Assembly: GCF_022846255.1 (NCBI RefSeq)
Contig: NZ_AP025682.1
Origin: Escherichia coli
Lineage (GTDB): Bacteria; Pseudomonadota; Gammaproteobacteria; Enterobacterales; Enterobacteriaceae
Strand: one strand, 5' to 3'
Length of the DNA: 64,000 nt
Shown here: one piece after another, positions 57,362-57,823 of the stretch
How positions within the stretch are numbered: the stretch's first letter is position 1
Layout: the number at the start of each line of letters is the position of its first letter
Position numbers and translations under genes: made by a program
Notes under the pieces: model-generated
What the model was told of the DNA's origin: nothing
The model's input: the letters and a program-made list of their open reading frames with translations, nothing else
Databases searched by the model: none

Positions 57362-57823
57362 GTCTGTATTTCCTTATCCAAAGTATGGAGAAGTTAACAT
57401 TATGTTTCACAACTTCATAGTGTCTGGAAGTATTATTTTTATGACAAAGGAAATACTTTGCGCAAATATTTTTTGTTTGATTACCAGCGAAACGTTTCTC
57501 TTATTTAAATAATTACCCACATAAAATATAGGTCTTTAATTATCAACCTTTATTATAAATAAAAGTTATGAAATATATTCTCTTCGTTATCTTATAATTA
57601 AGAGAAAAAAACTCACCACATGGTCATTTAAGCCAGGAATAAATTAGCTTCCCGTTCATCATTTTTGTGATCTTGCACACATCTTTGAGATAACGCACTT
57701 TCTTCACCAGTACGTTGCTCGCTTTGTCAGCAGAAGATTGCAACATTCTGTCAGAAGGCCGCGAATCCCCCGTTTTGTCGTGGTAATGTATGCACTTTGT
57801 GTTAGACGGGATAGGTTTTTAAG

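Follow-up and report, generated by a model that had tools for sequence, protein, structure and literature searches.

In E. coli, the divergently transcribed genes iraP and ddlA are separated by an intergenic spacer of 462 bp, located at 57362-57823 of the window (the whole 64-kb stretch of DNA analyzed here). This locus raises the question of why the spacer is so long and so AT-rich, and what it carries. The spacer is bounded by the iraP start codon (CAT on the plus strand), which reaches 57361, and by the ddlA ATG, whose first base is 57824. The GC content of the spacer is 0.335 versus 0.511 in the window, and merely 0.5% of 462-bp windows are equally AT-rich. The composition is uneven, with a GC content of 0.267 in the iraP-proximal 262 bp and 0.425 in the ddlA-proximal 200 bp, and the lowest-GC 200 bp of the entire 64 kb (57411-57610; 0.235) lies inside the spacer. 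Of the eleven divergent spacers annotated in the window, whose median length is 189 bp and whose shortest member measures 92 bp, the iraP/ddlA spacer is the longest. The spacer is found in 5422 of 5426 complete E. coli genomes with 90-100% identity.

The long, AT-rich gap described in a first-pass annotation of this DNA is therefore exact in its coordinates and real in its composition and rank. The same annotation noted several A/T tracts; eight homopolymer runs of at least 4 nt do exist, but their number is only what the composition predicts (shuffle mean 7.6). It suggested that so long a spacer may carry multiple regulatory inputs or an unannotated small transcript and missed the actual reason for the length, which is most probably the loss of two genes. 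Comparison with other genera makes it probable that the spacer is a gene-loss scar, formed from three fused intergenic regions, that still works as a regulatory region. The spacer is an ordinary regulatory intergenic region with an unusually legible history, and its odd appearance is explained without a hidden gene. The features discussed below are collected in Table 1.

Table 1. Features of the iraP/ddlA spacer and its flanking genes. Variable columns are counted among eight Escherichia lineages, with Fisher p values against the 4-fold degenerate sites of ddlA (55% variable), and are to be read within the limits of the comparison given in the text.
Feature	Position	Strand	Variable columns (p)	Remarks
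phoA	55585-57069	minus		
iraP	57101-57361	minus		
Whole iraP/ddlA divergent spacer	57362-57823			Probably three fused ancestral intergenic regions
iraP promoter region and leader	57362-57459		4-20% (1.8e-6 to 3.1e-4)	
iraP promoter P1	57384-57399	minus		Extended -10 TG-n-TAACTT; hexamer 57391-57396, TG 57398-57399
iraP promoter P2	57428-57440	minus		-10 AAAAAT 57435-57440, AT-rich discriminator, start 57428 (-67 from ATG)
RbsR-operator-like palindrome	57485-57502		11% (0.00034), tested as 57487-57504	CAGCGAAACGTTTCTCTT; 18 bp, centre 57493.5; K-12 401245-401262
NagC-like site	57510-57532			K-12 aataattacccacacaaaatata; FITBAR prediction only
67-aa ORF, PGAP 'hypothetical protein'	57543-57746	minus		WP_001300163.1 in other strains; internal stop in this strain
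Block of moderate conservation, upstream part of ancestral MFS-to-iraP spacer	57554-57603		28% (0.0011)	Contains …TTCATAACTTTT…
Hypervariable junction, probably from loss of the MFS coding sequence	57591-57633			Includes A7/T7 run 57605-57611
CRP site and core promoter	57634-57681		21% (3e-5)	
Putative core-promoter relic of lost MFS gene	57634-57665	minus		Conserved spacer AAAATGATGAACGGGAAGC; -10-like TAATTT 57641-57646
CRP binding site	57666-57681			TGTGA-tcttgc-ACACA, centre 57673.5
Fast-evolving junction, probable former site of Extensin-like_C gene	57682-57741		51-67%, neutral-like	
ddlA-proximal conserved block	57742-57823	plus	15% (3.7e-10)	Aligns to outgroups; low variation within Escherichia
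Linkers between blocks			51-87% (0.001 to 0.75)	
ddlA	57824-58918	plus		

Two other features of the window were noted. The annotation of this strain places an IS3-family IS1397 transposase between araJ and mak (46069-47417), and nearby 49720-50138 contains a truncated DUF2773 pseudogene together with a 26-aa hypothetical ORF.

Gene order between ddlA and iraP

The position of ddlA, iraP and phoA was determined in each of 80 iraP loci from other species. The distance between ddlA and iraP is 450-464 bp in all eight Escherichia lineages and 1.6-2.5 kb in most of the other genera examined, including Salmonella, most Citrobacter, Enterobacter, Leclercia, Lelliottia, Kosakonia, Phytobacter and others. 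In these long-gap loci, the extra DNA contains one or two genes on the iraP strand. The first intervening ORF encodes a 227-aa Extensin-like_C protein (PF06904, E = 1e-53). The second encodes an MFS transporter of approximately 400 aa that is closest to MdtG; because its score of 543 bits falls below the 571-bit equivalog cut-off, the gene is regarded as a paralogue of mdtG. Orthologues of the Extensin-like_C and MFS proteins are absent from the 5426 E. coli genomes, and the sole E. coli match to the MFS protein is the paralogue mdtG, which shares 64.5% identity and resides at a different locus. Coding relics of the two proteins were likewise absent from the Escherichia and Citrobacter spacers in tblastn searches, in which every match had E > 0.1.

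The ancestral gene order, still seen in the majority of present-day Enterobacteriaceae, would have been ddlA on one strand and, divergent from it, the Extensin-like_C gene, the MdtG-like MFS transporter gene, iraP and phoA on the other. Both middle genes would have been lost in the Escherichia lineage, fusing the three intergenic regions that flanked them into 462 bp, and the present length of the spacer is ascribed to this double loss. Loss in the Escherichia lineage is the parsimonious assumption, since Salmonella and Citrobacter both carry the two genes. The three corresponding Salmonella spacers total 571 bp, which is close to the 462 bp of E. coli.

Homology to the three ancestral intergenic regions was traced by blastn, by nhmmer with an Escherichia alignment, by aligning the spacer to those of Salmonella and Citrobacter joined end to end, and by the 41-mer test described below. 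Positions 57742-57823 are homologous to the spacer between ddlA and the Extensin gene of the outgroups, approximately 57634-57692 to the spacer between the Extensin gene and the MFS gene, and 57362 to approximately 57590 to the spacer between the MFS gene and iraP. In most outgroup genera, the ddlA-proximal 82 bp are 72-88% identical to the region upstream of ddlA, and the alignment stops sharply at 57742; the promoter and 5ʹ UTR of ddlA presumably lie in this block. The junction at 57682-57741 is as long as the remaining ends of the ancestral spacers on either side of it. At the other junction, 87% of the columns in 57604-57633 vary, and indels of 1-2 bp separate the lineages. Next to it, the block at 57554-57603 can be aligned to both Citrobacter and Salmonella.

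Gene content at this position also varies outside Escherichia. The Extensin-like gene is absent between ddlA and iraP in several other genera, and one strain of Citrobacter amalonaticus is without the MFS gene alone. Strains resembling Citrobacter sp. NCU1 (loci L009-L011, 2403-3000) are, like Escherichia, without both genes. Their remnant is longer, at 598 bp, and retains more of the MFS leader, which suggests that this deletion is independent of the Escherichia one.

Conserved blocks and candidate regulatory inputs

IraP controls the survival time of the stress sigma factor RpoS, so each input to the iraP promoter is also an input to the general stress response. Within Escherichia, five sub-blocks of the spacer evolve more slowly than the 4-fold degenerate sites of ddlA: the ddlA-proximal block, the CRP site with its core promoter, 57554-57603, the palindrome and the iraP promoter region. 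The conserved blocks for which the first-pass annotation had suggested searching are thus present, with 4-28% variable columns versus 55% at the 4-fold sites, in a comparison whose block borders were partly picked after the alignment had been viewed and whose columns share a phylogeny and are not independent. The linkers drift at a neutral-like rate. The suggestion of multiple regulatory inputs is borne out by these blocks, by the existence of two iraP starts, by CRP binding with a Kd of 1.2 nM, by H-NS binding and derepression, and by an RbsR-like palindrome, each of which is considered in turn.

Two principal promoters, P1 and P2, serve iraP. The P1 start at 57384 lies at -23 from the ATG, where Kim et al. 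(2012) placed the iraP start (400587, 23 nt upstream of the ATG). In Cappable-seq data, this start has a relative read score of 168 and the P2 start (U00096.2 400543) a score of 298, with a further weak iraP start at 400561 (-49); no start on the iraP strand (U00096.2, plus strand) lies more than 67 nt from the ATG in this single dataset from growth in glucose. Both promoters are near-invariant in an alignment of 17 genera, P2 through TAAAAATAATAC, which comprises its -10 hexamer and AT-rich discriminator, and P1 through its extended -10, TGnTAAC(G/T)T. P2 probably corresponds to the ppGpp/DksA-activated iraP promoter of the literature (Bougdour & Gottesman 2007; Girard et al. 2018). The phosphate-starvation induction of iraP via ppGpp mentioned in the first-pass annotation agrees with the literature.

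Two further elements near P2 were considered and set aside. A Pho-box reading of TTGTCATAAAA was rejected because, on inspection, just one of its half-sites matches. Just upstream of the P2 start, the 10 nt at 57447-57456 are perfectly complementary to the iraP Shine-Dalgarno region (57366-57375) and would be present only in transcripts entering from further upstream. A function as a translational insulator against read-through was not adopted, since the complement does not extend beyond the Escherichia/Citrobacter/Salmonella clade and compensatory changes are absent.

The AT-rich core of the spacer fits an H-NS-bound silencing region. In K-12, H-NS binding is documented by a gSELEX peak at 37.3% of maximum and by ChIP-seq. 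In Supplementary Data 6 of the PPTP-seq study, knockdown of hns gives the iraP reporter a fold-change value of 2.33 (-logP 10, glucose), corresponding to approximately 5-fold derepression, and the hns-iraP interaction is marked as previously unknown. The region is AT-rich and, according to these K-12 literature data, bound by H-NS and derepressed on its depletion, as is characteristic of an H-NS-repressed promoter. Within the spacer, H-NS would be concentrated on the AT-rich core. Additionally, FITBAR (2010) predicted a strong NagC site between iraP and ddlA. The columns surrounding this predicted site are poorly conserved within Escherichia, and a literature search for experimental support of the NagC site found none.

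The CRP site of the window agrees with TGTGA-N6-TCACA at 9 of 10 half-site positions and is one base off the K-12 allele, TGTGA-tcttgc-GCACA (ACACA versus GCACA). Within Escherichia, the half-sites are preserved and the N6 spacer bases vary. A Footprint-seq preprint (January 2026) reported in vitro binding of CRP to the K-12 allele at K-12 401077 with a Kd of 1.2 nM and lists the site, ttTGTGAtcttgcGCACAtct, among novel CRP sites, assigned to 'ddlA / iraP'. A perfect TGTGA-N6-TCACA occurs in 37 outgroup loci, its centre lying 127-131 bp upstream of the MFS ATG, and eight more loci have the CRP site there with one or two mismatches (45 in total). Next to the site, the outgroups share a conserved stretch that closes with GATAAAAC; in E. 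coli, the site is followed 19 nt later by TAATTT. The E. coli 41-mer extending from the CRP site through this -10-like hexamer was searched in each of 62 outgroup loci. In 31 of the 62, the best match was at least 26/41 and lay 135-139 bp upstream of the MFS ATG; the maximum reached by shuffled 41-mer queries was 25/41.

This geometry would fit a class II CRP promoter aimed at iraP, with a start predicted near 57633-57634 (K-12 NC_000913.3 approximately 401113). If the relic promoter is active, its transcript would run for approximately 273 nt before iraP. A start for the orphan promoter is absent from Cappable-seq, a single dataset from glucose-grown cells, in which CRP is inactive. Moreover, the promoter may be dead in E. 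coli, because its -10 departs from the outgroup form (GCTAATTT versus GATAAAAC). The orphan CRP promoter would serve either as a conditional distal promoter of iraP or as a retained, CRP-bound architectural site. The CRP site, novel and unassigned in the preprint, gains an evolutionary origin and a plausible target.

Several other observations concern this part of the locus. In the urinary isolate E. coli Ec-U7, IS1A is inserted in the AT-rich core (locus L087, 2289-2986) at approximately 57581 and splits the CRP block from iraP. In the outgroups, the leader of the MdtG-like gene, downstream of the CRP promoter, contains a conserved inverted repeat (…ACACCAAAG…CTTTGGTG…) approximately 40-130 bp upstream of the MFS ATG (loci L012-L054; e.g., L039 1470-1575), which may be a regulatory hairpin. 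A promoter-spacer-like sequence, …CCCAAAAATGATGAATGATAATAA…, recurs elsewhere in the locus in several genera, with 24-26/41 matches, near the chance ceiling. It is found at approximately 5260-5320 in L055, L058, L061, L063, L064 and L072 and at approximately 3354 in L065 and L066, in most cases downstream of phoA.

The palindrome is centred 132.5 bp from the iraP ATG, at -65.5 relative to P2 and -109.5 relative to P1. It shares 16 of its 18 positions with the rbsD operator of K-12 (CAGCGAAACGTTTCGCTG, taken from the genome), with one half-site fully identical, and it has the form GCGAAACGTTTCGC of that operator. Within the 64-kb window, it is the sole match of at least 15/18 to the rbsD operator; by chance, approximately 0.1 such matches are expected per genome. 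The bases adjoining AAACGTTT are of the RbsR type (G/C-G) and not of the PurR type, as judged against the PurR consensus. In 60 of 81 loci, the palindrome keeps a fixed spacing to iraP (129-133 or 115-121 bp upstream of the ATG), and AAACGTTTCG within it is invariant in 17 genera. These features suggest that the palindrome may be a binding site for RbsR, or for a LacI-family protein that shares its specificity, which would modulate iraP. Because it lies approximately 65 bp upstream of a start, the palindrome would be likelier to activate or modulate than to repress.

A connection between RbsR and RpoS has surfaced in Salmonella, where a 2024 study recovered rbsR and iraP mutants from one screen. 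Deletion of rbsR and deletion of iraP each lowered RpoS protein and left rpoS transcription unchanged, and the authors left the mechanism of RbsR open. The palindrome could provide it: RbsR would stimulate iraP through this site, explaining the RpoS link of Salmonella, and in Escherichia the orphan CRP promoter would have been co-opted as a carbon-starvation input. This proposal is tentative, and it is clearly the less probable outcome that it holds as a whole. Among the PPTP-seq entries listed for the rbsR knockdown, a response of iraP is absent; that test has low power, since even the rbsD promoter showed no significant change (0.74, class 0). A literature search for a paper linking RbsR to iraP found none. 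If true, the proposal would link the sensing of ribose with the general stress response throughout the Enterobacteriaceae and would supply the missing mechanism for RbsR-dependent posttranscriptional accumulation of RpoS in Salmonella. That RbsR may act on iraP, and through iraP on RpoS, is a testable lead; the orphaned CRP promoter module, which is still constrained, is a second.

The main competitor to a working regulatory region is a spacer whose centre is inert filler, in which two compact promoters flank decaying DNA, the "conserved" blocks have simply not yet diverged, and the binding of CRP and H-NS is inconsequential. Such a view is in keeping with the position of the mapped iraP-strand starts, all of which lie at most 67 nt from the ATG, with the neutral-like rate of the linkers, and with an IS1 insertion in the spacer that is tolerated in at least one strain; moreover, numerous CRP sites bound with high affinity in E. 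coli are not known to have a role in regulation. However, inert DNA would not be expected to show only 21% variable columns in the CRP site and core promoter and 11% in the palindrome when 55% of the 4-fold sites vary in the same eight genomes, nor to keep the CRP half-sites while the bases between them vary. The distance between the palindrome and iraP, fixed across many genera, and the approximately 5-fold change of the iraP reporter on hns knockdown also speak against filler, which is therefore considered unlikely. The preferred reading remains a scar of gene loss with a persisting regulatory function.

Hidden genes and foreign DNA

An independent small RNA or short transcript within the spacer, as envisaged in the first-pass annotation, finds some encouragement in the promoter-like relic, which is directed into the AT-rich core, and in the E. 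coli segment between the predicted start and iraP, which folds better than shuffles (z = -3.15). This fold in the hypothetical 273-nt leader was not accepted as a sign of structure, however, because it is not conserved within Escherichia; the consensus fold of the eight Escherichia sequences reaches only -4.6 kcal/mol, with an unfavorable covariation term of +1.08. A scan of the spacer found zero terminator-like sites, and a sigma-70 scan found promoter-like sites to be no commoner than in shuffles. Term-seq tables contain no 3ʹ ends between ddlA and phoA, and Cappable-seq (plus strand, glucose) contains no start for such an RNA, only those at 400543, 400561 and 400587. An Rfam scan of the spacer at a permissive threshold returned only chance-level eukaryotic matches, the best of which was a eukaryotic snoRNA with an E-value of 0.7. 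With no terminator, Term-seq 3ʹ end, distal iraP-strand start, Rfam match or conserved Escherichia fold to its name, the proposed unannotated transcript is highly improbable.

A small protein gene is less credible still. The 67-aa ORF is intact and annotated in many E. coli genomes (WP_001300163.1 or WP_000942026.1), and a 'hypothetical protein' feature underlies the match in 30 of 30 sampled E. coli genomes. Four records were checked: the ORF is intact in three strains, and an internal stop makes it a pseudogene in SK1144, a strain with the same spacer sequence as the window. It is intact solely in K-12-type strains, where it begins with TTG, and is interrupted by stops or frameshifts in seven of eight Escherichia sequences (the window strain, with its internal stop, and six other lineages). 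The ORF has no Pfam or NCBIfam matches and is absent from the curated K-12 annotation. Since it spans the deletion junction, it cannot predate the gene loss. For this reason, and because it is broken in most Escherichia lineages, the PGAP call is probably a propagated annotation artefact, and the ORF is probably non-coding.

Finally, although a horizontally acquired insert between iraP and ddlA might be suspected from a GC content down to 0.18-0.24 and from the binding of H-NS to the region, the alignments effectively refute a foreign origin: the core can be aligned to the native spacer between the MFS gene and iraP in Salmonella and Citrobacter, with homology to native spacers in Enterobacter too; that outgroup spacer is itself AT-rich (median GC 0.36); mobility genes and flanking or direct repeats are absent from the region; and virtually every E. 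coli carries it.

Comparison with known regulatory systems

The iraP promoter known to be activated by ppGpp and DksA is matched at this locus by the AT-rich discriminator of P2 and its strong conservation. The literature on that promoter leaves the 300 bp further upstream unaccounted for. Like H-NS-silenced AT-rich regions, the core of the spacer has a GC content of 0.24-0.27, is bound by H-NS in gSELEX and ChIP-seq, and is associated with a reporter that is derepressed on hns knockdown. Unlike those regions, the spacer is native and ancestral DNA rather than xenogeneic. The palindrome also departs from the RbsR operator of rbsDACBK in that it sits approximately 65 bp upstream of a start, not over the promoter or leader, and in that one of its half-sites is degenerate.

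In class II CRP-dependent promoters, CRP is centred near -41.5. The spacer resembles them in having a near-consensus CRP site at about -39.5 to -40.5 of the predicted start. The same geometry occurs upstream of the outgroup MFS gene, and high-affinity CRP binding has been measured at the E. coli site. Unlike the known class II promoters, the E. coli relic would have outlived the gene that it formerly served, and no start has been observed for it in the Cappable-seq data.

As in other gene-loss scars, two coding sequences are gone from this locus and the flanking non-coding DNA is kept in its original order. Unlike a scar that merely decays, the spacer retains a CRP site and core promoter that are under purifying selection across the genus, which argues that a regulatory module can remain under selection after deletion of its gene.
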